From IMG/VR virus record IMGVR_UViG_2574180238_000003: a stretch of DNA of 47,428 nucleotides; one strand, 5' to 3'. Below are positions 1-29,491 of the stretch, piece by piece. The DNA comes from a virus. Lineage: Duplodnaviria > Heunggongvirae > Uroviricota > Caudoviricetes. Position 1 is the stretch's first letter; every line of letters starts with the position of its first letter. A model generated the notes under the pieces. It saw only the letters and a program-made list of their open reading frames with translations. It ran no database searches and was not told the origin of the DNA. Both the position numbers and the translations under genes were made by a program.

Positions 1-1119
1 TCAAATAACCAACTTAACCCATTCCTGACCTCGGGTATCGTTATAGCGATCGGTGGTTGCCTGGACTTTATGTCCTAGTAAGGTTTTTGTATCGATACCC
101 TGTGCACGGTACAGCCGTTCAGATAGAGAGCGTTGTTCATGAAATGTGGGCGGTGTTTTTCCTGCTGGTGGAATTATTCCAGCCAGATCCCGCGCTTTGG
201 CAAAGTAGTCGCTCAGGTTGTCTTTACTCATCGGCTTTGGTTGTTTCTGGTGCCGACTATGGATTAGATATGGACTTAATATTCTGTCTCGGCATCCATC
301 AATAACGTCTTTTAACGTTATCCCAATGGCATCACAGCGTAGTGTAAGCGGTAACGCCAGACGCATTCCGGTTTTTCCCTGGGTGATATGCAAGTGTTCG
401 TTCCACACATCTGAAAAACGCATGTGGCAAATGTCATCACGGCGCTGACCAGTGACAATCGCAAGAAGCATTGCGTTACGGATAAAGTGTTTTTCCGGCG
501 TTGCGTTGTAAATTTTTTGCCAGTCTTCCAGGGCGAGCCTGGCTCTGGTTACTTTAGGGATCGGTTTACGGGTAGCCTCCGGAGGATTCCATCCAGGAGG
601 AACTTCCCCTGCATGTTGTGCTTCTTTATAAATATCAACCCATAATCCGCGATTTACTCTCGCTGTGCTGACCATGTCTTTATCCAGCCATTCATCCAGT
701 ATTAATGCAAAGTCTCTTACTTCCAGGTCTTTCAATGGGTGATTTCCCAGGCGGAAAACCAGGTATGCAGCCATTCGCGCCTTTTCTTTGTGGGTTGTAG
801 CTGCAATATCTCCATTTTTCAGTCGTGAGTCCTGTATTTTCAGATATCGATCAACCCATGCTTTTAATCTGATACCCCGACGTTTTGTTGCTGATGGACT
901 TTCATCAATTTTGCGCATGAAATATTCTGCTTCTGCTGCAGCTATTCGTTGATTAGCCGTGGAAGCGATTTTTTCTGCCTTGTCTTTGTCTGTTCCGAGT
1001 CCGTGAAATTTTCCAGTCACTGGATTTTTATACTGGTAGTAAACCTTGCCAGTTCTGCGATCAAACTTTTCGTAAAGACATGCTATGTCAGTGCTGTTTT
1101 TTCGTGGCCTCGGTGACAT
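1..1119 (-). CDS. int: Phage integrase (tyrosine recombinase)
   Basis: 372-aa ORF ending at window position 1. C-terminal half shows the tyrosine-recombinase layout (TGQRRDD arginine box, HEQR, LLGH, terminal Y in TDRY). Lies at the prophage left end overlapping xis, as in lambda. Confidence 0.9.
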   Translation of the reverse strand: MSPRPRKNSTDIACLYEKFDRRTGKVYYQYKNPVTGKFHGLGTDKDKAEKIASTANQRIAAAEAEYFMRKIDESPSATKRRGIRLKAWVDRYLKIQDSRLKNGDIAATTHKEKARMAAYLVFRLGNHPLKDLEVRDFALILDEWLDKDMVSTARVNRGLWVDIYKEAQHAGEVPPGWNPPEATRKPIPKVTRARLALEDWQKIYNATPEKHFIRNAMLLAIVTGQRRDDICHMRFSDVWNEHLHITQGKTGMRLALPLTLRCDAIGITLKDVIDGCRDRILSPYLIHSRHQKQPKPMSKDNLSDYFAKARDLAGIIPPAGKTPPTFHEQRSLSERLYRAQGIDTKTLLGHKVQATTDRYNDTRGQEWVKLVI

Positions 1120-1366
1120 GAGTTAAAATCTCCTTCAGTGCGTCATCATCGTCAGTATGAATTTCCGGCGCAATTCCTGTTTCACCAGGACCCACAAATA
1201 CTGCTCGGCGATCTATCAGCCAACGCCCACGGATTTTTTGTGGCCTTGGAACGATGTATCCCATTTTTCCGTATTTCACCAGGGTAGTGTTTGTTATTGG
1301 GAGACTGAACCGTTTAGGTTTCCACTCGTCGAGCGTTATCAGGTACTGTTCGCTCATGGCCATCAC
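1088..1366 (-). CDS. xis: Excisionase (Xis-like DNA-binding protein)
   Basis: 92-aa ORF immediately upstream of and overlapping the int start; small basic protein in the canonical xis position. Exact start Met among MMAM is uncertain. Confidence 0.7.
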   Translation of the reverse strand: MMAMSEQYLITLDEWKPKRFSLPITNTTLVKYGKMGYIVPRPQKIRGRWLIDRRAVFVGPGETGIAPEIHTDDDDALKEILTHVTEATKKQH

Positions 1367-1418
1367 TCCGGAATGCGCCAGTTGCAGAATAGCAACTACA
1401 ACTGGCGACGGTTGAACA

Positions 1419-3890
1419 TTAAAAATCAGCCTGACTCGGGATCAGTTTTTGCCAGATGGCTGAAACGTATTTTGCCTGGTAACGCGTATCGTGCAGGGCG
1501 TTATGGTGTTCACCTTCGAATGGAATAGTCGTTCTTGCGTCGAAATCCATCACCAGTCCCAGAGCAACCATCGTTCTTACATCGCGATCATTGGTGTAAC
1601 GCCACGGGCAGGGGATCCCCTGCCGTTCATATGAACGGCGTAAAATCACGTTGTCGAAAGTTGCACCGTTACCCCAGACCTGAACAAAAAATTCACCGGA
1701 GTTTTCGTCGATAAATTCCCGGAATTGCAGCAGTGCATCATCCAACGGGATTTCATCGGTCAGAATGGCGGATTGTGCTTCGCGTGACTGTTTCAGCCAC
1801 CACTTAATGGTGTCCCGTTCGATGACCCCGCCTGCGGTTTCCAGATCGATAGTTTTGCTGAATTCTGGCCCCATCTCTCCGGTTGCCGGATCAAAAAACT
1901 TACCGGCTATAGCGTTTATTGGCGCATCAGGATTTTTTCCCATTGTTTCAAGGTCAATCATCAGATGGTGCCACAACCTGCTGGTGGATGTGATTTCACG
2001 ATGACCGTTCACCTTAATTAAGGGATTTGCTGTCTCGCCAGTTTTATTATCGCTGGCGTGATACTGATCGCTGTCAGTGTTCTCCTTGTGCGGATCTTCA
2101 GTGCCTTCCATTTCCTCCGGAGCATTTTCCTGAACTTCAATCAGGCTCTCTCCATCGAATGTTTCCTGGTAGGTTGCGTCGCCCATCACCGCACCACAGT
2201 CAGGACAGTTGCCGCCACCGGTCTGACCGCATGCGGTGCAAACTTTCTCCACTTCCTGTTGCACTGCTGGTTCTGGTTGTTGCTCTTCTGGCCCGTTTTG
2301 TTGCGTATCCGGGCTGTTTTGTTCCGCTTCTGGCTCATTTTGTTTCACGCCGGGCTGATTCTGGCCCTCAGCGTTGCGACTCTGGATCCCTTTCACCCAT
2401 TTCGGATCATTAGGGTCGCTAATCCCTTCAACAAATTCACCACGTGATGCAGCAAGCAATTTATCGGCGTCAGGCTGGCTGATATTGGCTGCCTGCATAA
2501 TTTTGTTTACTTCGTCAGCGGTAACTTTTACCGGCTCTGGTTGTACGGAATCTTCAGCGGTATCTACATTTTGCGGTAAGCCCGTATATGTGCCATTTTT
2601 TCGGGCAAAATATTCCTCTTTTGAGATTTCGGTAGCGCCGGCAGCCAGCGCCTTGTCCAGACCAGAAAGTTTGTTTGCCCTGCCGTATTTTTCCTCGCCC
2701 TTATCGGTAAAGACGAAATAAAATGGTCCTTCACGCTCTACAGATGGTTCAGCTTCCACCAGGATTTCATTTTTTTGAGTATCGGATTCTGCCGTCTCCA
2801 CTGGAGCAGTTTGTGCTGCTGACGGCTGGAGAGTATCAGCAGAGCTCTGGTCTGTTTCTTCATGCTCAAACACGCCCTTTGTTGTCAGGTATTCGCTGAT
2901 ATATTTGTTCAGTGCAACGGGATCTTTGTGAATGTCGATCGGACGTTCACGGACAAGGCCAAAAATAGTCTGACGGTCATAGCCAAGTGCTTCGGGCTGT
3001 TTGCGCATTGATGCTGAGATACGCTTCCAGTCTTCGCGATCCTTGTCGATAACCTCATTTGTCGCCCAGCGATGGATGGTACCGTCAATATTTCCCGCAT
3101 TCACATCACCGGGCCAGAGGGCGCAGGCCAGCTCATTGTCGAGTGTTTTCCATGTCTGTTTGTATTCTCGGCGAACGGCAACAGTGACATCCCCGGTTTT
3201 TTCAGCAGAGTTTTCAGTGTTCTGTTGGTTTACTCTGGAACGGGCGATATCAACGACAGATGTGTATTTCCCGGTTTCCTTGCGTTCACCTTCGCGACGT
3301 TTTTTCCAGATGCGCATCTCTGCCTGAATTTCGGGCCATTTAGCAGCAGGCTTGCATTTATGCTTAACCCACCCGATGGCATGCAGCTTAAGCTCCGGAT
3401 ACATGGCGTTAACTTCTGGCATTTTCATCAACGCTTCAACGATATGGCCGTCGAATGTTGCCATGTCTTCCTGCAACAATTCCTGTGCGCTAATCACCAT
3501 ATCAACAGTGATGTTTTCACATGTGTCGAACTTAACCATGACGGCGTTCTGTACTTCAGGGGCCAGCTTGTCAAAGGTGACGTTCATCGGATCGGATTCA
3601 GTCTCGACCGGGACAAAGGAAGCAGACGCCTCATCCCAGCGGTTTTCCTGCATATATTCGGTATCCCAGGAATCGAGGGTAGGGCGGGGTATGCCGGGTT
3701 TATCCTCACAGACAATAAATTTATAAGCGCAGTCCTGAGCTGCCGGGAATTGCTCCAGAAATTGCCAGTGAAATTTTGCGCGTGCGCGACGCTCATCACC
3801 GGCTTCAATGGCAGTGGCCACCGCAACAGCGCTATCTTCTTTTATGGCCTGTTCATCAGGAATAGCCGCGCAAATAAAGATTTTACTCAT
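1419..3890 (-). CDS. Exodeoxyribonuclease VIII (RecE)-family protein with C-terminal DnaQ-like DEDDh 3'-5' exonuclease domain
   Basis: 823-aa ORF. Central Cys-rich segment (CTACGQTGGGNCPDCGAVMGDATYQETF) and the flanking KLLAASRGEFVEGISDPNDPKWVKGIQ segment resemble the RecE linker region as recalled. C-terminal ~200 aa carry DEDDh motifs read directly: MIDLETMG (DxE), WGNGATFDN, HNALHDTRY (Hx4D). Confidence 0.75.
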   Translation of the reverse strand: MSKIFICAAIPDEQAIKEDSAVAVATAIEAGDERRARAKFHWQFLEQFPAAQDCAYKFIVCEDKPGIPRPTLDSWDTEYMQENRWDEASASFVPVETESDPMNVTFDKLAPEVQNAVMVKFDTCENITVDMVISAQELLQEDMATFDGHIVEALMKMPEVNAMYPELKLHAIGWVKHKCKPAAKWPEIQAEMRIWKKRREGERKETGKYTSVVDIARSRVNQQNTENSAEKTGDVTVAVRREYKQTWKTLDNELACALWPGDVNAGNIDGTIHRWATNEVIDKDREDWKRISASMRKQPEALGYDRQTIFGLVRERPIDIHKDPVALNKYISEYLTTKGVFEHEETDQSSADTLQPSAAQTAPVETAESDTQKNEILVEAEPSVEREGPFYFVFTDKGEEKYGRANKLSGLDKALAAGATEISKEEYFARKNGTYTGLPQNVDTAEDSVQPEPVKVTADEVNKIMQAANISQPDADKLLAASRGEFVEGISDPNDPKWVKGIQSRNAEGQNQPGVKQNEPEAEQNSPDTQQNGPEEQQPEPAVQQEVEKVCTACGQTGGGNCPDCGAVMGDATYQETFDGESLIEVQENAPEEMEGTEDPHKENTDSDQYHASDNKTGETANPLIKVNGHREITSTSRLWHHLMIDLETMGKNPDAPINAIAGKFFDPATGEMGPEFSKTIDLETAGGVIERDTIKWWLKQSREAQSAILTDEIPLDDALLQFREFIDENSGEFFVQVWGNGATFDNVILRRSYERQGIPCPWRYTNDRDVRTMVALGLVMDFDARTTIPFEGEHHNALHDTRYQAKYVSAIWQKLIPSQADF

Positions 3891-3985
3891 TGTGTTTTAA
3901 CCTCATTACAGATTTCAGGGTGAACGAATCCCTGCCATTGCTGGAATTTTTAATCCGTTGGTATGGCGTTAATATGGCTGGAGGG

Positions 3986-4174
3986 TTATCCAGCCGGTGT
4001 TTCGTTATTCAGGTACAGCGATACTTTTTTTACCGGGAGGCATTCACCAGAAATTTTTTGCTCGTCTCTTGCCTGGAGGCAGGATTCTTTACTGGCATAA
4101 ATTCCGGTAATCACATTCTGTGATTCACCCGTTATAAGAAAAACCGTCATCACCAGTGCAAATGCTGAAGTCAT
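3986..4174 (-). CDS. Small membrane protein (N-terminal hydrophobic segment), function unknown
   Basis: 62-aa ORF directly downstream of the DicB-like gene with a 4-bp overlap, the position held by ydfD in Qin; hydrophobic N-terminus. Identity not recognised. Confidence 0.4.
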   Translation of the reverse strand: MTSAFALVMTVFLITGESQNVITGIYASKESCLQARDEQKISGECLPVKKVSLYLNNETPAG

Positions 4175-4359
4175 TGACGTTCTCCGAAAATACCAAGTTT
4201 AATAAGGGCAATTCGGGAAAGAATGGAATTATCATTGAGCAGATAAGGCTCATATTTCCGCATATTAATGGCATCCTCAGTAAACGCTTTATTACTGAGC
4301 AGAACACCAATATCAAAACAACCTTCAGACGTATTAACGTTTGGTAATAACGTTTCCAT
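4171..4359 (-). CDS. dicB: DicB-like cell-division inhibitor
   Basis: 62-aa ORF; N-terminus METLLPNVNTSEGCFDIGV...FTEDAIN closely matches the recalled E. coli DicB N-terminus; same length; lies just downstream of a DicF-like sRNA as in Qin. Confidence 0.7.
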   Translation of the reverse strand: METLLPNVNTSEGCFDIGVLLSNKAFTEDAINMRKYEPYLLNDNSILSRIALIKLGIFGERQ

Positions 4360-4534
4360 TATCGCGTCCTCAACAATGAATTTTGTGATGCCGTGCCTGG
4401 TGCCTCCAGGTGACGTTAACCAGTTAACAATTAACGCCGGATTGTTAGTTGATGTCTGTTACGCAAGTAAAAGACCGCTTGTTTTAACTGTTCCGCGTGC
4501 GCATGGCCGCATTCACCGCATCACAAAATTCACT

Positions 4535-4575
4535 TTAAAAAGAGCGGATATCCATTTCCGCCGAATCACCAGAAA
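4535..4575 (-). ncRNA. dicF: DicF-like small RNA with intrinsic terminator
   Basis: Minus-strand sequence tttctggtgattcggcggaaatggatatccgctcttttt: the 5' end matches the recalled DicF 5' end (UUUCUGGUGA), followed by a hairpin (gcgga/tccgc) and U-run. Downstream flank (uuuuuaaagugaauuuugugaug..gugaaugcggc..gcgcacgcggaacag) also matches the recalled dicF-dicB spacer. Ends are approximate. Confidence 0.55.
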
Positions 4576-4912
4576 AGTGATAACAGAGGTTGTTGTGGCT
4601 GGGGGGTCACTTAAGCGTATGGTCAACCTGACAACCCGGTGTCCTCAACGGGGGAAGGAATAACCCCGCCATACTTACCGCCGCGCTATTTCGCGGATTG
4701 CCACAACCGGAAACGCACGGTTGAAGAAATTTAACGACAAGCCTTATATGCAAAGGAATCTCGCCGTGCGCTTTCGTGTTATGCCCTGACTTTTCAGGGA
4801 TATATCCTTTCAGTAAACTGTCAGTGCCGGATTCTTATCCGTGTCCGGCGCACGACCACACGCTGTCACGAGAGGTCTCCATTCTCAACCAGTAACCTCA
4901 ATGGAGGATAAA

Positions 4913-5107
4913 ATGTCAGAGCAGGAGTTAAAACTTGGTGCATGTTATTGTGTTCTCAAGGAGCTGGTACACATGCTTCCATCTACTCAGTATCAACAGT
5001 TAGTTGGCAATTTAAATCAGCGAATCGAAGCTATGTTAAAATCTGATGGTTTTAATAACGTAGAAACGCTGATGCTAAAAAGATATCTTGATGGATTGAT
5101 CAGATAA
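4913..5107 (+). CDS. Hypothetical small protein (64 aa)
   Basis: ATG at 4913 preceded by GGAGGA (4901-4906); ORF MSEQELKLGACY...; convergent with the leftward operon and overlapping the 3' end of the 5075-5434 gene, so it may be spurious. Confidence 0.3.
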   Translation: MSEQELKLGACYCVLKELVHMLPSTQYQQLVGNLNQRIEAMLKSDGFNNVETLMLKRYLDGLIR

Positions 5108-5434
5108 CATTTTTTTACGGCGTTCATATTCGTTAATATTTATGAAGCCTGTTGCCAGAAGCAGTTCGTTAATTTCATGGTTGTTTGGCTGTTTCTGGCT
5201 CTTTGAACTGAGATCTTCCACTTCTTTTTCTGCAAATTGTTTTGCTGTATCCTCTGTGCCATGGATATTTAAAGCTGTATCTGAAAACAGCCCAGTAAAC
5301 GCATCGCGCACATTACGAGCCATATTATCAGTGTCTTTTTTTGTTACCGATTCCAATTCAAGTTCGTTCAGACGATGACGAAGTGTGTGTGCTGCAATCT
5401 CCTGGATTGAAGGCGGTAAATATTTAAATTCCAT
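5075..5434 (-). CDS. Hypothetical protein, first gene of leftward early operon
   Basis: ORF with internal start MEFKYLPP preceded by a GAGG Shine-Dalgarno; acidic, helical-looking protein; no family recognised. Confidence 0.5.
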   Translation of the reverse strand: MEFKYLPPSIQEIAAHTLRHRLNELELESVTKKDTDNMARNVRDAFTGLFSDTALNIHGTEDTAKQFAEKEVEDLSSKSQKQPNNHEINELLLATGFININEYERRKKMLSDQSIKISF

Positions 5435-5778
5435 CGTCAACCTCATCAGTCAGTGTTTCTTGCTAACCAGCGATGCGCGCCAGCTGCGGTTTTAAACGTT
5501 TTACTTTTGGTATACGTCATCACGGTGAAGGTGCCGTCCTAGTTAGGGAACACACCGCATACCAGAGATTCGTTGTTGCTAAGATTGAGCGTATCCATGT
5601 TGACCTCATTTCCCCTTAACGCCGGGGTAGCGGAACTAAAAACCTGCTGCGCTGTTATACAAAGTGTTCCCGCCGTCATGTTCATACGCCTCGGGCTGGC
5701 TACTTAACCCCTAATCACTGCCGGGTAACTCGAAGTATTGCCCGGTGTTCTGTGGGCGGGGTGGGTTGGTATGGGAGA

Positions 5779-5850
5779 ACTATAGGTAATGCCTAATTAA
5801 TTGTCAATAGGCTGCGCCTAATGTTTTTGACGAAAACCTAATAGGCGATG
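5779..5850 (-). promoter_or_regulatory. Leftward early promoter (PL-like) with repressor operator half-sites
   Basis: On the minus strand: TTGACA (5807-5802), 17-bp spacer, TATAGT (5784-5779). The gcctaat / attaggc motif recurs at 5791-5797, 5816-5822 and 5837-5846, the same motif as in the operators between the repressor and cro-like genes. Confidence 0.5.
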
Positions 5851-5917
5851 ATATGTGGAAGAGGTGATGGGGGGCTAGATAACGGGCTCTAGGAGGTTCC
5901 CATCAGACCATATAAGT

Positions 5918-6394
5918 TTAAGTTCCCGTTTTGGTGATGTTCTGGCTTTTCCGTTCTGATTCTTGATCTTTCAAATACTTACCTACCTTCATCTCCATTG
6001 TGGCAATGTAGGCGCGAACGTCATGATCAACCCAACCAGGTTCCGTGGCATTTGCTGATAAGAGAAAAGCCACAATGGCTCTTTTTTCATCAGAGGCGGC
6101 TTGATAAAGGCTGTTTATGTCTAAAAGTTCACTTTTTGTATCTGAAATGAGGGAGGTGGGTATGGGGTATTCGTTAAGCCCCCAATGCTCTGGGCCAACC
6201 ACATCAGAAAAGAAACGCCATAGCTCTGGAAGTTTATCTTTACTTATCGAACCTTTCTTAATCCAATCATAGATTGATGGTGGTTGGACTTTGAAGTGAC
6301 GCGCTACCTCCGCCTTTGATTTGACGGATCCTGATGCAATTTTTTTGTTAATGGCCTGCTCTATCGCTCGGCCTAAGTCTTTACCACTAAGCAT
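5918..6394 (-). CDS. Prophage repressor, RacR-like (XRE/CI-type HTH)
   Basis: 158-aa ORF divergent from a YdaS/YdaT-like pair; N-terminal HTH-like segment (SKAEVARHFKVQPPSIYDWIKKG); same length and context as Rac RacR. Confidence 0.7.
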   Translation of the reverse strand: MLSGKDLGRAIEQAINKKIASGSVKSKAEVARHFKVQPPSIYDWIKKGSISKDKLPELWRFFSDVVGPEHWGLNEYPIPTSLISDTKSELLDINSLYQAASDEKRAIVAFLLSANATEPGWVDHDVRAYIATMEMKVGKYLKDQESERKSQNITKTGT

Positions 6395-6519
6395 TGCTTA
6401 ATACTCTCCTATGCTCATTGCATTAGGCAATCCCTACTTCATTTGCGTTAGGCGACGCCTATTGACATTTGTATTAGGCGTCGCCTAATATTGTTTCGTG
6501 TTTTTTTGGAGTTCATTCG
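6395..6519. promoter_or_regulatory. Divergent promoter/operator region (OR-like) between repressor and cro-like gene
   Basis: Two 15-bp palindromes, ttaggcgacgcctat (6448-6462) and ttaggcgtcgcctaa (6474-6488), plus a half-site cattaggca (6421-6429); rightward promoter TTGACA (6462-6467) with TAATAT (6486-6491) overlapped by the second operator. Confidence 0.65.
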
Positions 6520-6843
6520 ATGAAAAAAGAGAACTATTCATTCAAACGAGCGTGTGCTGTTGTCGGTGGGCAATCTGCAATGGCTAGGCTTTTAGGTGTA
6601 TCACCTCCAAGCGTAAATCAATGGATCAAAGGTGTACGTCAGTTGCCTGCTGAGCGATGTCCAGCAATTGAACGTGCAACAAGAGGTGGTGTTCTGTGCG
6701 AAGAACTTCGTCCTGATGTTGACTGGTCATACTTACGACGCTCGTCATGCTATTCGCTGAATATGTTGATGAAGCAACCAAATGACGAAAACGAGCATAC
6801 CCGAAATATCAAGAGGCAAATGATTCATGAAAATCAGCCATGA
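6520..6843 (+). CDS. ydaS: YdaS-like Cro/CI-family HTH protein
   Basis: 107-aa ORF with HTH (QSAMARLLGVSPPSVNQWIKG); divergent from the repressor; followed by an overlapping YdaT-like gene, as in Rac. Confidence 0.7.
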   Translation: MKKENYSFKRACAVVGGQSAMARLLGVSPPSVNQWIKGVRQLPAERCPAIERATRGGVLCEELRPDVDWSYLRRSSCYSLNMLMKQPNDENEHTRNIKRQMIHENQP

Positions 6844-7252
6844 GCACATCCGCATGGCGATGAATGCCTGGGCGCATCCGGATGGCGAGAAAGTACCAAC
6901 TGCGAAGATTACCAAAGCGTATTTTGAACTGGGAATGACATTTCCGGAACTGTACGGCGACAGCCATCCGGAAGCCCTAGCTCGTAATACCCAGAAAATT
7001 TTCCGCTGGGTAGAGAAAGACACCCTTGATGCTGTTGAAAAAATTCAGGCGTTGTTACCAGCGATCGAAAAGGCAATGCCACCTTTGCTGGTGGCCCGAA
7101 TGCGCAGCCACAGTTCAGCCTATTTTCGGGAGCTGGTGGAGACGCGGGAACGACTGGTGAGAGACGCTGATGATTTTGTCGCAGTGGCGATTGCCGGTTT
7201 CAATCAGATGAACCGTGGTGGCCCGGCAGGAAATGCCGTGGTGATGCACTAA
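6827..7252 (+). CDS. ydaT: YdaT-like protein
   Basis: 141-aa ORF overlapping the end of the ydaS-like gene; size and context match Rac YdaT. Confidence 0.6.
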   Translation: MKISHEHIRMAMNAWAHPDGEKVPTAKITKAYFELGMTFPELYGDSHPEALARNTQKIFRWVEKDTLDAVEKIQALLPAIEKAMPPLLVARMRSHSSAYFRELVETRERLVRDADDFVAVAIAGFNQMNRGGPAGNAVVMH

Positions 7253-7260
7253 AAGCACGG

Positions 7261-7482
7261 ATGGCGTTAACAATGACGGAGGGGGCTGTGAATCTACCTG
7301 ATTTTTTTACTGTTCTTGCCTGTGGTATTGGTGGGGCTCTGGCCGGACATTTTATCGTGAATCTGTTCACCTGGTATCTCTTTGGTTTCAGGGATTACTT
7401 CACCCGATGGACTTTAAATTGTCTTCGTCGGTTCATTGGGCGCAAGCCTGATATGAGGATTTGGAAAGATGAAAAACGCTGA
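7261..7482 (+). CDS. Hypothetical small membrane protein
   Basis: 73-aa ORF with a hydrophobic core (FFTVLACGIGGALAGHFIVNLFTWYLFGF); no family recognised. Confidence 0.3.
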   Translation: MALTMTEGAVNLPDFFTVLACGIGGALAGHFIVNLFTWYLFGFRDYFTRWTLNCLRRFIGRKPDMRIWKDEKR

Positions 7483-7486
7483 TTGT

Positions 7487-7882
7487 TTATGGCATCGGGA
7501 GGCCGTTTTTCTCCCGATATCGCTCGATCTCTGCCTGAATTGCTGCAACAGCACACATGGAGTCGTACTGGATCAGTCTGAGATTTTCAATCGTGAATTT
7601 GTCTTCCTCCATCAGGTTGAGCATACGAAAGTATCGAAAGACGTAAACTTCTGGGCCGCTGACACCATACCCCTTTGCCTTCGATATGGTTTGGTGGAGC
7701 TCCCATTCTTTCAATGCGAGGGTGAGAGCCATTTCTCTTATTTTTGCTCTGGCTTCAGCAGCCCGGCGTTGCGCTTCAATGGTTCGTTCCGATTTGCGTT
7801 GCCAGGCACCATTAACCAGCGAAACCACGCCAGCAACACACGCACTCAACACAACGCTACTTGTGATAGTTGCAAAATCCAT
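7487..7882 (-). CDS. Hypothetical protein with N-terminal transmembrane segment
   Basis: 131-aa minus-strand ORF (N-terminal TM, then predicted coiled-coil) lying among plus-strand genes; protein-like composition, unlike the overlapping Cys-rich plus-strand ORF. Confidence 0.35.
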   Translation of the reverse strand: MDFATITSSVVLSACVAGVVSLVNGAWQRKSERTIEAQRRAAEARAKIREMALTLALKEWELHQTISKAKGYGVSGPEVYVFRYFRMLNLMEEDKFTIENLRLIQYDSMCAVAAIQAEIERYREKNGLPMP

Positions 7883-10949: not shown

Positions 10950-11159
10950 AAACGGTTTGCGGGGAAAGAAGAGTTAAGTAGAATTGCTGCGGGTGCTTGA
11001 GGCTGTTTGCCTCGGGCATGCCGCCGTAAGGCAGACAGAGAAAAGCCCCAGTTAACATTACGCGTCTTGCAGGACGCTTAACATTAATCTGAGGCCCAAT
11101 CTATGCTTCACAAACGTAGGTTAGCCTCTTACGTGCCGAAAGGCAAGGAGAAGCAGGCT

Positions 11160-11315
11160 ATGAAGCAGCAAAAGGCGATGTTAATCGCCCTGATCGTCAT
11201 CTGTTTAACCGTCATAGTGACGGCACTGGTAACGAGGAAAGACCTCTGCGAGGTACGAATCCGAACCGGCCAGACGGAGGTTGCTGTCTTCGTAGACTAC
11301 GAATCTGAGAAGTAA
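11160..11315 (+). CDS. hokD: Hok/Gef-family type I toxin (HokD/RelF-like)
   Basis: MKQQKAMLIALIVICLTVIVTALVTRKDLCEVRIRTGQTEVAVF... matches the Hok family signature and recalled RelF/HokD; GC hairpin ggcgagggagaaatccctcgcc (11325-11346) just downstream, typical of hok mRNA 3' ends. Confidence 0.85.
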   Translation: MKQQKAMLIALIVICLTVIVTALVTRKDLCEVRIRTGQTEVAVFVDYESEK

Positions 11316-15406: not shown

Positions 15407-15482
15407 GGCCCTTTAGCTCAGTGGTGAGAGCGAGCGACTCATAATCGCCAGGTCGCTGGTTCAAATCCAGCAAGGGCCACCA
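15407..15482 (+). tRNA. tRNA with CAU anticodon (Ile2/lysidine-type, ileZ-like; Met not excluded)
   Basis: 76-nt cloverleaf: acceptor GGCCCTT/AAGGGCC, D-arm GCTC..GAGC, anticodon loop CTCATAA, T-loop GGTTCAAATCC, 3' ACCA encoded; close to recalled E. coli ileX. Confidence 0.85.
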
Positions 15483-15491
15483 TATCACATA

Positions 15492-15568
15492 CCGCCATTA
15501 GCTCATCGGGATAGAGCGCCAGCCTTCGAAGCTGGCTGCGCGGGGTTCGAGTCCTCGATGGCGGTCCA
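15492..15568 (+). tRNA. tRNA-Arg (anticodon UCG)
   Basis: 77-nt cloverleaf: acceptor CCGCCAT/ATGGCGG, anticodon stem CCAGC/GCTGG with loop CTTCGAA, T-arm CGGGG-TTCGAGT-CCTCG, 3' TCCA. Confidence 0.8.
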
Positions 15569-16334: not shown

Positions 16335-16590
16335 TGTGAAGTGTTAAATCCCTCACAATTCAGTAAGTTGACAGTTGCCTGTCAGACTGAGCATTTGTTA
16401 AAAAAATTTCGCATGGTGAATCCCCCTGTGCGGAGGGGCGACTGGTGAACGGTATGATCTCTTTGATGATCGTAAGCGAGAATACGCGGGTTTGGTGTCA
16501 CCGGGCTGAACTCACCGGGAGGCACCCGGCACCATGCTCATGGTGATACAGAAATGCGGCTTCAGCCCCTCTCCGGAGGGGCTTTCTTAT
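16335..16590 (+). repeat. Structured repeat unit 1 of 4 (candidate sRNA)
   Basis: Conserved blocks ttaaatccctcacaattcag, gcatggtgaatccccctgtgcggaggggc, caccgggaggcacccggcaccatgc, and terminator hairpin gcccctctccggaggggc with T-run. Confidence 0.6.
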
Positions 16591-16746
16591 GGACAAAAAA
16601 AGCCCGCGCTGGGAGACGCGGGCGGCAAGGAATAAACAATAAAACGTGAAGTAATACTTCAACTGGCGAATAATACCCGACAGTAATCACTCTGCGCAAT
16701 AGCGTGGCCTTTTTCGAATTGCGGGCTGTAGTCTCCCTTCTGCCGG

Positions 16747-18304: not shown

Positions 18305-18548
18305 TCATGGAAATGTTAAATGACTCACAATTCGGTTGATGGGCTATTGTCTGATCGATGGAAGTCTTGTAAAAACGAGCCAGCATAGTGAATCCCCCTG
18401 TGCGGAGGGGCGTCTGACATGGTCTCCATAGCGATGGTCACAATACGCAGATTCAGTAGTCAGGCTGAATCTACCGGGAGGCACCCGGCACTATGCTGCT
18501 TATGGTGTATACATAGCGATCGGCCCCTCTCCGGAGGGGCTTTTTTTG
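18305..18548 (+). repeat. Structured repeat unit 2 of 4
   Basis: Same block order as unit 1; long-range helix gcatagtg (18383-18390) / cactatgc (18489-18496) carries a compensatory base-pair change relative to unit 1; terminator gcccctctccggaggggc plus T7. Confidence 0.6.
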
Positions 18549-18564
18549 TGCGGGAAAAGGCTGT

Positions 18565-18806
18565 GTTGTTAAGTGTTAAATTCCTCACAGTTCAGATGGT
18601 TGATGCTTGCCTGTCTGAGGGGGCGTTGTTAAAAAAGTTCTGCATGGTGAATCCCCCTGAGCGGAGGGGCATATCAGCGCAGGTGTTTCTACTCTATCCT
18701 TTCTGTGCGGGTTCAGGTGCTGATACTGAACTCATCGGGAGGCACCCGGCATCATGCATATGGTTAACAGACACGTAGCGAAGCCCCTCTCCGGAGGGGC
18801 TTTTTT
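18565..18806 (+). repeat. Structured repeat unit 3 of 4
   Basis: Same blocks; helix gcatggtg / catcatgc (G-U wobble); terminator gcccctctccggaggggc plus T6. Confidence 0.6.
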
Positions 18807-18824
18807 ATGCAGGGAAAAGGCTGT

Positions 18825-19062
18825 GTTGTGAAATGTTAAATTCCTCACAATTCATGAGGTTGATGATTGTCTGATTGATGAGGAGTTTGTTAAAAAAAAC
18901 GGGCATGGTGAATCCCCCTGTGCGGAGGGGTGATATCGTATCATTTCCTGTGTGGCCGACTGATATCACGGACATTTGTTCACCGGGAGGCACCCGGCAC
19001 CATGCAGTATACAGAGATTAGGCATACATCCAGGCTCCTCATCGCAGGAGCCTTTTTACATG
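18825..19062 (+). repeat. Structured repeat unit 4 of 4
   Basis: Same blocks; helix gcatggtg / caccatgc; different terminator sequence (ggctcctcatcgcaggagcc plus T5) in the same position. Confidence 0.6.
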
Positions 19063-19291
19063 TAAAAAAAAAAACGCTCCTGGGAAGAGCGGTTGGCAAG
19101 GAAGCAAGGAATAAATAACAAAACGTGAAGTAATTTATTCAGCACCCTAATAATACCTTAGAGTAATCACATTGCGCAACTGTAAGGGCGTATTTCTTTT
19201 TTGCGGGCTGTTTTTCTGTGTGACTTTTGTGTTTCCGGAGGTCAGCCCGTGCCTTCTCTGACTCAGAACATTATCCCGGCCGGGAGGATTC

Positions 19292-27902: not shown

Positions 27903-29491
27903 AACGAACGCCTGTCCTGATTGATGTGAACGGCGTTCCGCTTCGTGAGAGTCTCAGCTACAACGGGGGCGGTGCAGGATTTGGCGGGCAAATGGCTGAG
28001 TGGTTGCCACCGGCGCAGAGTGCCGATGCGGCCCTGCTGCCCGCGTTGCGTCTGGGGAATGCCCGGGCAGATGATCTGGTGCGCAATAACGGAATAGCGG
28101 CTAATGCGGTGGCTCTGCATAAGGATCACATTGTCGGGCATATGTTTCTGATCAGCTACCGTCCGAACTGGCGCTGGCTGGGGATGCGGGAGACCGCGGC
28201 AAAAAGCTTTGTCGATGAGGTGGAGGCGGCCTGGTCGGAATACGCCGAAGGGATGTTTGGCGAGATCGACGTGGAAGGAAAACGCACGTTCACGGAATTT
28301 ATCCGTGAAGGTGTGGGCGTTCATGCGTTTAACGGCGAAATCTTTGTGCAGCCGGTCTGGGATACGGAAACCACGCAGTTATTCCGTACGCGTTTTAAAG
28401 CCGTGAGTCCGAAACGGGTGGACACGCCTGGACACGGTATGGGGAACCGTTTTCTGCGGGCCGGTGTGGAGGTCGATCGATATGGCCGTGCCGTTGCGTA
28501 CCATATCTGTGAGGATGATTTTCCGTTCTCCGGGAGTGGACGATGGGAACGGATCCCGCGTGAACTTCCCACCGGGCGTCCGGCCATGCTGCATATTTTC
28601 GAGCCGGTGGAGGACGGGCAGACCCGTGGAGCCAATCAGTTTTACAGCGTCATGGAACGGCTGAAGATGCTGGATACGCTGCAGAACACGCAGCTGCAGA
28701 GCGCCATTGTGAAGGCGATGTATGCAGCGACGATTGAAAGTGAACTTGATACCGAAAAGGCCTTTGAATATATCGCGGGGGCACCGCAGGGTCAGCAGGA
28801 TAATCCGCTTATTAATATTCTGGAGAAGTTCTCCAGTTGGTATGACACGAATCATGTGACGCTGGGCGGTGTCAAAATTCCGCACCTTTTCCCCGGGGAT
28901 GATCTGAAACTGCAGACCGCACAGGATTCAGACAATGGATTTTCGGCACTTGAACAGGCGCTGCTGCGGTATATCGCCGCCGGTCTTGGCGTTTCCTACG
29001 AACAGTTGTCCCGTGATTACTCGAAGGTCAGTTATTCAAGTGCCCGCGCCTCCGCCAATGAGTCGTGGCGCTATTTTATGGGACGACGAAAATTTATTGC
29101 GGCCCGGCTGGCCACGCAGATGTTTTCCTGCTGGCTGGAAGAGGCACTTCTTCGGGGGATTATTCGTCCGCCACGGGCGCGTTTTGATTTTTATCAGGCG
29201 CGTTCAGCCTGGTCACGGGCAGAGTGGATTGGAGCCGGAAGAATGGTCATTGACGGGCTCAAGGAGGTCCAGGAATCAGTGATGCGCATTGAGGCCGGAC
29301 TGAGCACGTATGAGAAAGAGCTGGCGCTGATGGGTGAGGATTATCAGGACATTTTCCGCCAGCAGGTCAGGGAATCCGCAGAGCGGGAAAAAGCCGGACT
29401 CTCACGTCCGGTGTGGATAGCGCAGGCGTATCAGCAGCAGATAGCGGAGAGCCGCAGGCCGGAAGAGGAGACAACACCACGTGAGACGTAA
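27899..29491 (+). CDS. B: Portal protein (gpB)
   Basis: 530-aa ORF after W, collinear with lambda B as recalled. Confidence 0.85.
   Translation: MKRTPVLIDVNGVPLRESLSYNGGGAGFGGQMAEWLPPAQSADAALLPALRLGNARADDLVRNNGIAANAVALHKDHIVGHMFLISYRPNWRWLGMRETAAKSFVDEVEAAWSEYAEGMFGEIDVEGKRTFTEFIREGVGVHAFNGEIFVQPVWDTETTQLFRTRFKAVSPKRVDTPGHGMGNRFLRAGVEVDRYGRAVAYHICEDDFPFSGSGRWERIPRELPTGRPAMLHIFEPVEDGQTRGANQFYSVMERLKMLDTLQNTQLQSAIVKAMYAATIESELDTEKAFEYIAGAPQGQQDNPLINILEKFSSWYDTNHVTLGGVKIPHLFPGDDLKLQTAQDSDNGFSALEQALLRYIAAGLGVSYEQLSRDYSKVSYSSARASANESWRYFMGRRKFIAARLATQMFSCWLEEALLRGIIRPPRARFDFYQARSAWSRAEWIGAGRMVIDGLKEVQESVMRIEAGLSTYEKELALMGEDYQDIFRQQVRESAEREKAGLSRPVWIAQAYQQQIAESRRPEEETTPRET

Follow-up and report, generated by a model that had tools for sequence, protein, structure and literature searches.

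The divergent region around the repressor gene racR in the analysed DNA (IMG/VR virus record IMGVR_UViG_2574180238_000003; 47,428 nt, the whole of which is here called the window) very probably constitutes the immunity switch of a lambdoid E. coli prophage of the Rac type, built from twin promoter-operator cassettes directed outwards from the repressor gene. The same operator sequence occurs on either side of racR, the two units forming a 23-nt inverted repeat with 87% complementarity, and each operator cluster overlaps an outward sigma-70 promoter, of which the right one (PR, equivalent to PydaST) is known to be active in K-12 and the left one (PL) is predicted. The right cluster comprises three good sites and a weak one, the left cluster two sites and a doubtful half-site. 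A common design was found on both sides: the distal operator abuts the −35 hexamer, and the proximal operator fills the promoter spacer and overlaps the −10 hexamer. On near-identical DNA of K-12, protection of the right side by RacR in footprinting, the start of PydaST and derepression of both operons have been shown; for the window, we infer binding of RacR at the left operators (OL), activity of PL, cooperativity and any looping between OL and the right operators (OR). A preliminary description of the region, made from its sequence, had compared it to lambda OL/OR with Rac-type proteins, and this layout was borne out by the shared operator, by the overlap of both clusters with outward promoters and by the conservation of the left cassette across genera.

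The assignment of the repressor to RacR, and with it the earlier designation as a Rac-type immunity region, was supported by a match to the NCBIfam RacR equivalog model NF049929 (245.7 bits at a cut-off of 200), by 94% identity to K-12 RacR (b1356) and by the agreement of the operators and PydaST with those footprinted in K-12. Residues 1-80 are identical in the two proteins, and the same binding specificity is therefore expected. The domain search returned no Peptidase_S24 match for RacR; an S24 domain is present in relatives from Achromobacter, Pigmentiphaga and a Pseudomonas phage, and in the betaproteobacterial relatives the shared N-terminal domain is fused to Peptidase_S24, with the operators on both sides unchanged. 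A search for a solved structure of RacR found none.

For K-12, a single ydaS-ydaT promoter (TTGACA/TAATAT) and three racR promoters have been mapped, PydaST was abolished by mutation of the −10 hexamer TAATAT, and DNase I footprints of RacR were obtained over the racR-ydaS spacer, the PydaST region being protected at the lowest concentration (PMC9638921). The same study, in which PracR3 was mapped, derived the operator consensus (T/A)TAGGC-n3-GCCTA(T/A) and placed one operator over the racR ATG (PMC9638921). Binding of RacR in K-12 was also demonstrated by EMSA and ChIP, with three repeats noted (PMC5700373), and four RacR operators, a YdaT-box and a reverse promoter PracR4, an analogue of lambda PRE, have been described (PMC11879457). 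The spacer of the window (125 bp) is 92% identical to that of K-12 and retains all half-sites and promoter hexamers, the operator differences between the two being confined to the N3 spacers (Table 1). The 13-bp core of O1 and its right-hand flank (TAGGCGTCGCCTAAT) are the same in K-12, and the first base of the perfect 17-mer is A here and G in K-12. At the position of the weak operator over the racR start codon, a better match (TAGGCAATGCTTA) was found in other genera. Judged from its sequence, the right half of the region is a further copy of the characterised K-12 element and adds nothing new. The two 15-mer palindromes noted previously between the divergent repressor and ydaS genes, overlapping the rightward promoter, were recovered exactly as described, and an inverted-repeat scan gave 100% complementarity between the arms 6448-6461 and 6475-6488. 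Likewise, the proposed control of ydaS-ydaT by the repressor is in line with right operators and a PydaST promoter that coincide with the elements characterised in K-12 by footprinting and promoter mapping (PMC9638921).

Table 1. Coordinates of genes, promoter elements and operators of the predicted switch and of the predicted left operon in the window.
Feature	Position	Strand	Sequence	Remark
Predicted PL operon	1419-5685	-		Followed by xis and int
Exonuclease gene	1419-3890	-		In predicted PL operon
DUF1482 gene	3986-4174	-		In predicted PL operon
dicB	4171-4359	-		NCBIfam DicB, 112 bits (cut-off 100)
phrog_2151 ORF	5075-5446	-		In predicted PL operon
ydaG/ydaF-like remnants	5539-5685	-		In predicted PL operon
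Predicted PL −10	5784-5779	-	TATAGT	Same position in K-12; TAATAT/TACTAT in other genera
Putative OL1	5783-5795		TAGGTAATGCCTA	One mismatch; in PL spacer, overlapping −10; identical in K-12
Predicted PL −35	5807-5802	-	TTGACA	17-nt spacer to −10
Putative OL2	5808-5820		TAGGCTGCGCCTA	Perfect core; abuts PL −35
Lone half-site	5842-5846		TAGGC	34 bp from OL2; might be a third, weak site, uncertain
racR	5918-6394	-		158-aa repressor, CI analogue
Weak operator	6388-6400		TAAGCATTGCTTA	Two-mismatch match over racR start codon; identical in K-12
Counterpart of leaderless PracR3, −10	6403-6408	-	GAGAGT	GAGAAT in K-12 (by alignment)
Right operator	6424-6436		TAGGCAATCCCTA	One mismatch; in racR promoter region; identical in K-12
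15-mer palindrome	6448-6462		TTAGGCGACGCCTAT	
Right operator O2	6449-6461		TAGGCGACGCCTA	Abuts PR −35; K-12 differs only in N3 spacer (ACA)
PR (PydaST) −35	6462-6467	+	TTGACA	Same hexamer as mapped K-12 promoter
15-mer palindrome	6474-6488		TTAGGCGTCGCCTAA	Extends to perfect 17-mer, 6473-6489
Right operator O1	6475-6487		TAGGCGTCGCCTA	Inside perfect 17-mer 6473-6489; overlaps PR −10
PR (PydaST) −10	6486-6491	+	TAATAT	18-nt spacer; 10/12 match together with −35
ydaS	6520-6843	+		Cro analogue; 86% identical to K-12 YdaS
YdaT-box	6820-6837		ATGATTCATGAAAATCAG	Spans ydaT start codon; 17 of 18 bases as in footprinted K-12 box
ydaT	6827-7252	+		CII analogue, CP-933P allele; only 31% identical to K-12 YdaT

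The whole window was searched for the palindromic core TAGGC-N3-GCCTA. Five matches with no more than one mismatch were obtained in the 47,428 bp versus 0.86 ± 1.04 in shuffled sequences, and none of 100 shuffles contained five. The matches start at positions 5783, 5808, 6424, 6449 and 6475, with none elsewhere in the window, and all of them adjoin the repressor ORF, two on its left and three on its right; allowing two mismatches added the site at the racR ATG and one stray match at 28986. The bare 7-mer GCCTAAT was not enriched in the window (7 matches versus 4.6 expected), and the signal thus resides in the full palindrome and its clustering. On the left side, three half-sites had been described; the sequence instead contains a pair of full operators at a distance of 25 bp and a lone TAGGC, which is degenerate in K-12 (TAGGT) and is not conserved across genera. 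Both left sites and the PL hexamers are also present in K-12, the only difference being the N3 spacer of OL2 (TAT in K-12, TGC here), and a putative site at the position of OL1 is kept in eight genera and a Klebsiella phage. Neighbouring operators are spaced by 25-26 bp, and the distance between the left and right clusters is 641 bp both here and in K-12; with 616-654 bp in other genera, helical phasing of this distance is not maintained.

The leftward promoter motif proposed earlier, TTGACA and TATAGT separated by 17 nt on the minus strand, was found by the promoter scan as the best match within positions 5400-6900 (11/12), and no other promoter-like site was detected in positions 1-5800 (0 versus 7.6 expected). 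The order of elements in the cassette is O2, the −35 hexamer TTGAC(A), 6-7 nt, and O1 overlapping the −10 hexamer. On the minus strand, no intrinsic terminator was detected from the racR stop codon to position 5820. Three features speak against the twin-cassette switch: OL has two sites and the doubtful half-site in place of the three sites of lambda, OL1, the site over the −10 hexamer, carries a mismatch, and one terminator-like hairpin lies on the minus strand at 4562-4543, between PL and dicB.

The conservation of the left cassette was analysed in 14 RacR-type repressor loci taken from the window, K-12, species-representative genomes and phage records, representing Escherichia coli, E. ruysiae, Mixta, Morganella, Proteus, Achromobacter, Pigmentiphaga and Klebsiella phage KpF5, with one E. 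coli phage locus being K-12-like. Paired sites exactly 25 bp apart were found downstream of the repressor gene in 13 of the 14 loci; the sole exception is Klebsiella sp. R390, in which the right promoter is decayed too. None of 2000 shuffled 2.7-kb segments contained such a pair. When anchored on the distal site, the left cassettes follow the pattern ATTAGGCnnnGCCTA-TTGACA-n6-TTAGGCnnnnCCTA-(A)TAT, amid flanks that cannot be aligned (mean top-base fraction 0.85 in the cassette versus 0.49 in the flanks). All aligned PL cassettes agree in the first five bases of the −35 hexamer, TTGAC, and the sixth base is A except in Proteus (TTGACT). OL follows the repressor stop codon at distances of between about 75 bp and 1.4 kb: in KpF5, a gene with an HSDR_N domain followed by an intrinsic terminator lies between the repressor gene and OL, and in Pigmentiphaga extra ORFs are found at this place. 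The left pair thus appears to behave as a separate unit, and the intervening cargo recalls the arrangement cI-rexAB-t_imm-OL of lambda. Covariation between left and right operators was considered as a further line of evidence and dropped, as the half-site is the same in every usable homologue and only conservation can be read from the set. At the locus of Pseudomonas phage D14H, whose helix-turn-helix is diverged, no clear repeated motif was seen.

Among 5426 complete E. coli genomes, 1086 carry the left cassette, and in the 25 matches listed no annotation lies under it. In the searched Rac literature, no description, binding assay or promoter assay of operators or a promoter downstream of racR was found: the terms 'ydaG' and 'ydaF' are absent from PMC9638921 and PMC11879457, an operator or promoter downstream of racR is not mentioned in PMC6765115, PMC11014345 or bioRxiv 10.64898/2026.09.06.749655, and searches on Rac OL/PL, sbcA and genome-wide RacR binding yielded nothing useful. 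The RacR regulon has been described as lacking detailed characterisation (PMC11014345). The left cassette is therefore best regarded as a modest, apparently undescribed detail of a known system, which fits the expected lambdoid pattern.

The gene calls for the left operon were taken from the PGAP annotation of the chromosome of E. coli HY220605, which is 99.9% identical over positions 5400-7300 of the window. In this strain a lambdoid prophage is located beside potC, with the order int, xis, exonuclease gene, DUF1482 gene, dicB, ydaF/G-like remnants, racR, ydaS, ydaT and replication genes. Upstream of dicB, no Rfam match to the DicF sRNA was obtained at the gathering threshold. In K-12, the corresponding leftward genes respond to RacR: upon its depletion, transcripts of ydaG, ydaF, kilR, ydaE, racC, recET, xisR and intR rose 40-70-fold or more, and ralR was likewise raised (PMC6765115, PMC11014345, bioRxiv 10.64898/2026.09.06.749655). 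In these studies RacR was lowered either by C protein or by CRISPRi directed at the racR promoter or the 5′ end of the ORF, and in the CRISPRi experiments the racR transcripts decreased 11- to 20-fold as the leftward genes increased. Due to this opposite behaviour, transcription that reads through from the racR promoters cannot supply the leftward genes, and since they are derepressed although racR transcription is blocked, a RacR-repressed promoter is required downstream of the racR 5′ end. From its sequence, PL is the only strong candidate for this promoter. The derepression in K-12 could be partly indirect, via YdaS, YdaT or excision of the prophage. Moreover, work from the Sen laboratory ascribed the silencing of kil to a Rho-dependent terminator within racR, t_rac, that acts on transcripts reading through from the racR promoter (PMC4150792). 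PL need not be the sole route of control of the leftward genes, given t_rac, and the lack of an intrinsic terminator after racR in the window is explained by Rho-dependent termination of read-through at t_rac. A role of OL-bound RacR as a roadblock against racR read-through was also considered and rejected as unnecessary in view of the published t_rac (PMC4150792).

Three other readings of the left sites were weighed against a RacR-repressed PL. That they are auxiliary operators only, looping to the right operators in the manner of the lambda OL-OR octamer and lacking a working leftward promoter, is very unlikely. The cluster distance of 641 bp here and in K-12, the octamerisation of PaaR2 from CP-933P and the unusual silence of PydaST in vivo would suit such a loop; yet pure looping sites have no need of the TTGAC(A) hexamer and the good −10 hexamer which stand in fixed register in every genus, and the leftward genes are derepressed upon loss of RacR. 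Looping is in any case compatible with the twin-cassette switch rather than exclusive of it. Highly improbable is the proposal that the leftward genes are expressed solely by racR read-through held off by Rho at t_rac, with the left palindromes being functionless relics of a duplication. It would be consistent with the terminator inside racR that guards cells from kil expression (PMC4150792) and with the minus strand being free of intrinsic terminators down to position 5820, but the increase of ydaG, kilR and recET under CRISPRi, which cuts the racR transcripts 11- to 20-fold, is the opposite of what read-through predicts, and relics would not remain conserved across genera amid unalignable flanks. 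The possibility that the palindromes are chance matches or hairpins of transcription terminators is negligible. The terminator scan did flag 5808-5820 and 6471-6491 as plus-strand hairpins with T-rich tails; these tails do not lie on the strand from which a racR terminator would be read and are absent in other genera, on which grounds the terminator reading was discarded. Chance is countered by the shuffled sequences and by the conservation across genera, and in K-12 RacR leaves footprints on the sites to the right.

On the right side, the alternative is that ydaS-ydaT form a toxin module and that RacR merely keeps two toxins off, which we consider unlikely. This reading draws on the Pfam family names YdaS_toxin and YdaT_toxin and on the essentiality of racR in K-12, which is owed to expression of ydaS-ydaT (PMC5700373, PMC5700377). 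Against it stands the fact that both proteins are DNA-binding regulators which are now regarded as Cro and CII analogues rather than toxins (PMC5917428, PMC8630535, PMC11879457). In the window, the ydaS product matches both the Pfam family YdaS_toxin (PF15943; 4e-30) and P22_Cro (1e-8); YdaT matches PF06254 at 9e-10 and the PDB entries 3C4R (E=6e-86) and 8BT1 (E=3e-79), and is classified in PHROGs as 'CII-like transcriptional activator'. The literature on K-12 is divided on intrinsic toxicity of YdaS and YdaT, and for YdaT of the CP-933P type, to which the window protein belongs, toxicity was not detected in published work. The earlier suggestion that the pair may act as a toxic early module here is weak, the two proteins being Cro and CII analogues and the YdaT allele being of a type reported as non-toxic. 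The obvious harmful gene under predicted PL control is dicB.

For the switch with twin cassettes, the following mode of action is proposed. RacR, as the CI analogue, would recognise TAGGC-N3-GCCTA, presumably as a dimer, and when bound at O1 and O2 would occlude RNA polymerase at PR and PL, so that both early operons would be silent in the lysogen. PR (6449-6491) drives ydaS, ydaT and the replication genes, and PL (5779-5820) would drive the ydaG/F-like genes, dicB, the exonuclease gene, xis and int. Autoregulation would be provided by the two further right-hand sites (6424 and 6388), which cover the promoters and the start codon of racR. When RacR drops, YdaS (Cro-like) and YdaT (CII-like) would take over, as suggested by the K-12 work, in which YdaT acts via the YdaT-box and the reverse promoter.

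The left cassette gives a concrete location for the promoter whose repression by RacR is needed to keep the early-left operon silent, an operon with a division inhibitor (dicB here, kilR in K-12), RecET-type recombination genes, xis and int. A RacR-controlled PL, if true, would directly account for the 40-70-fold derepression, whereas the t_rac view (PMC4150792) invokes Rho termination of read-through alone. The cassette also allows prophages of a common type to be annotated by a simple rule and hints at which prophages share immunity. We give an even chance to the broader proposition that PL/OL supplies the half of the RacR regulon that was missing, directly controlling kilR/dicB, recET and xis-int, and that the RacR-type DNA-binding domain and the duplicated cassette form a portable unit extending from Enterobacterales to Betaproteobacteria. 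If this holds, about one in five complete E. coli genomes contains a RacR-repressed promoter that has escaped annotation, and the classical derepression of recET in Rac would be explained. The unit would then have been joined, with unchanged specificity, to a non-cleavable Rac-type tail in some cases and to an S24 autocleavage domain in others, and homoimmunity and cross-regulation would extend to prophages from different genera.

The region shares with lambda a repressor gene placed between two operator clusters that each overlap an outward early promoter, the Cro and CII analogues on the right, and the division inhibitor, recombination genes, xis and int on the left, as well as, in relatives of the window, cargo between the repressor gene and OL. 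Neighbouring sites are about 2.4 helical turns apart in both; in lambda OR, the centres of adjacent operators are 24 and 23 bp apart. In contrast to lambda, there is no sequence similarity, the operator core measures 13 bp (17 bp in lambda), the sites of OL number two instead of three, and RacR lacks the S24 autocleavage domain. Additionally, YdaS was reported not to repress racR in K-12 (PMC9638921), unlike the lambda pattern. The prophage CP-933P of O157:H7 has the same layout of a repressor gene and divergent ydaS-ydaT genes, and its YdaT is nearly the same protein (PMC8630535, PMC9986795). In CP-933P, an experimentally active PL with operators is located beyond the repressor operon (PMC8630535). 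It differs in its repressor PaaR2 and its operator repeats GTTTAGTAA, which are unrelated to RacR and TAGGC-N3-GCCTA, in a toxin-antitoxin pair behind the repressor gene and in its YdaS, which is 26% identical to Rac YdaS.

The closest relative among the characterised systems is K-12 Rac (PMC9638921, PMC11879457, PMC5700373), with which the window shares RacR, YdaS, the spacer and the operators at the identities given above and in Table 1, the PydaST hexamers, the site at the racR ATG, the left cassette and the YdaT-box. It differs in that YdaT is another allele, dicB takes the place of kilR and sieB is absent from the left operon, and the window-type prophage, beside potC, looks much more complete than the cryptic Rac of K-12. 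The −35 hexamer of the reverse promoter PracR4 is CTGACG here versus TTGACG in K-12, and the sequence changes from Rac-like to CP-933P-like directly past the YdaT-box.

In the ydaS-ydaT region the sequence is Rac-like until about 20 nt inside ydaT and resembles CP-933P from there on (window 6820-6860), so that the YdaT-box, the motif at 6820-6837, is also the site of a mosaic junction. The same YdaT-box has been kept in the window and in K-12 despite YdaT proteins of only 31% identity, which agrees with published work in which the two alleles cross-activate. Within ydaS lies the equivalent of PracR4, the PRE analogue among the K-12 promoters, which points in the reverse direction; its -10 hexamer is unchanged, and its -35 hexamer reads CTGACG instead of TTGACG.

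In the early-left operon, dicB occupies the position held by kilR in the Rac prophage of K-12, and an Rfam search detected no DicF sRNA near it. No sigma-70 promoter-like site was found on either strand of window 1-5800, compared with 7.6 +/- 2.6 in shuffled sequences, which fits a single long operon dependent on PL, the predicted left promoter. At the RecE position, the 823-aa protein annotated as 'exonuclease' has an Rv2179c-like 3'-5' exoribonuclease domain at its C-terminus (Pfam 7e-61).

Features of the window and of the compared RacR-type loci
Feature	Locus	Position	Strand	Remarks
'Exonuclease', 823 aa	window	1419-3890	minus	RecE position; PGAP label 'exonuclease' only
dicB	window	4171-4359	minus	early-left operon; NCBIfam 112 bits
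Terminator-like hairpin	window	4562-4543	minus	upstream of dicB
PracR4 counterpart, -10 TACGCT	window	6610-6615	reverse	inside ydaS; plus-strand AGCGTA
PracR4 counterpart, -35 CTGACG	window	6637-6642	reverse	inside ydaS; plus-strand CGTCAG
131-aa ORF, phrog_36733	window	7487-7882	minus	unknown function; between ydaT and replication gene
sok/hokD module	window	10991-11165		
tRNA-Met and tRNA-Arg	window	15407-15568		
HSDR_N-domain protein, 384 aa	L002, Klebsiella phage KpF5	2649-3803		between repressor gene and OL
Intrinsic terminator	L002	about 3830-3860		CCCGCTTATGCGGGATTTTTTT; after HSDR_N-domain gene, before OL
RacR-type/Peptidase_S24 fusion	L003, Pseudomonas phage D14H	2001-2852		
RacR-type/Peptidase_S24 fusion	L013, Achromobacter	2501-3598		
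RacR-type/Peptidase_S24 fusion	L014, Pigmentiphaga	2501-3406		

Among the compared loci, three carry the RacR-type N-terminal DNA-binding domain fused to a LexA-like Peptidase_S24 domain, and in the two betaproteobacterial ones (L013 and L014) TAGGC-N3-GCCTA sites flank the repressor on both sides. The HSDR_N-domain gene of KpF5 and the terminator behind it hold the same position as rexAB and t_imm of lambda, and by this analogy the gene may be a defence gene expressed in the lysogen. In Klebsiella sp. R390 the right promoter (L012 2435-2500) has TTTTAT in place of its lost -35 and the left operator pair is absent within 2.4 kb; the switch seems to be decaying at this locus. The 5.2-kb contig JARKOR010000130.1, binned as 'Candidatus Nanosynbacter', encodes a RacR 94% identical to that of the window and has operators of the E. 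coli type; its most likely source is E. coli, the contig having been assigned to this MAG by a binning error.

Elsewhere in the window, the sRNA family STnc100 is represented by four copies, three of them in tandem (16382-16594 and 18354-19063). The phrog_36733 ORF runs opposite to the early-right operon and may be a cargo gene.
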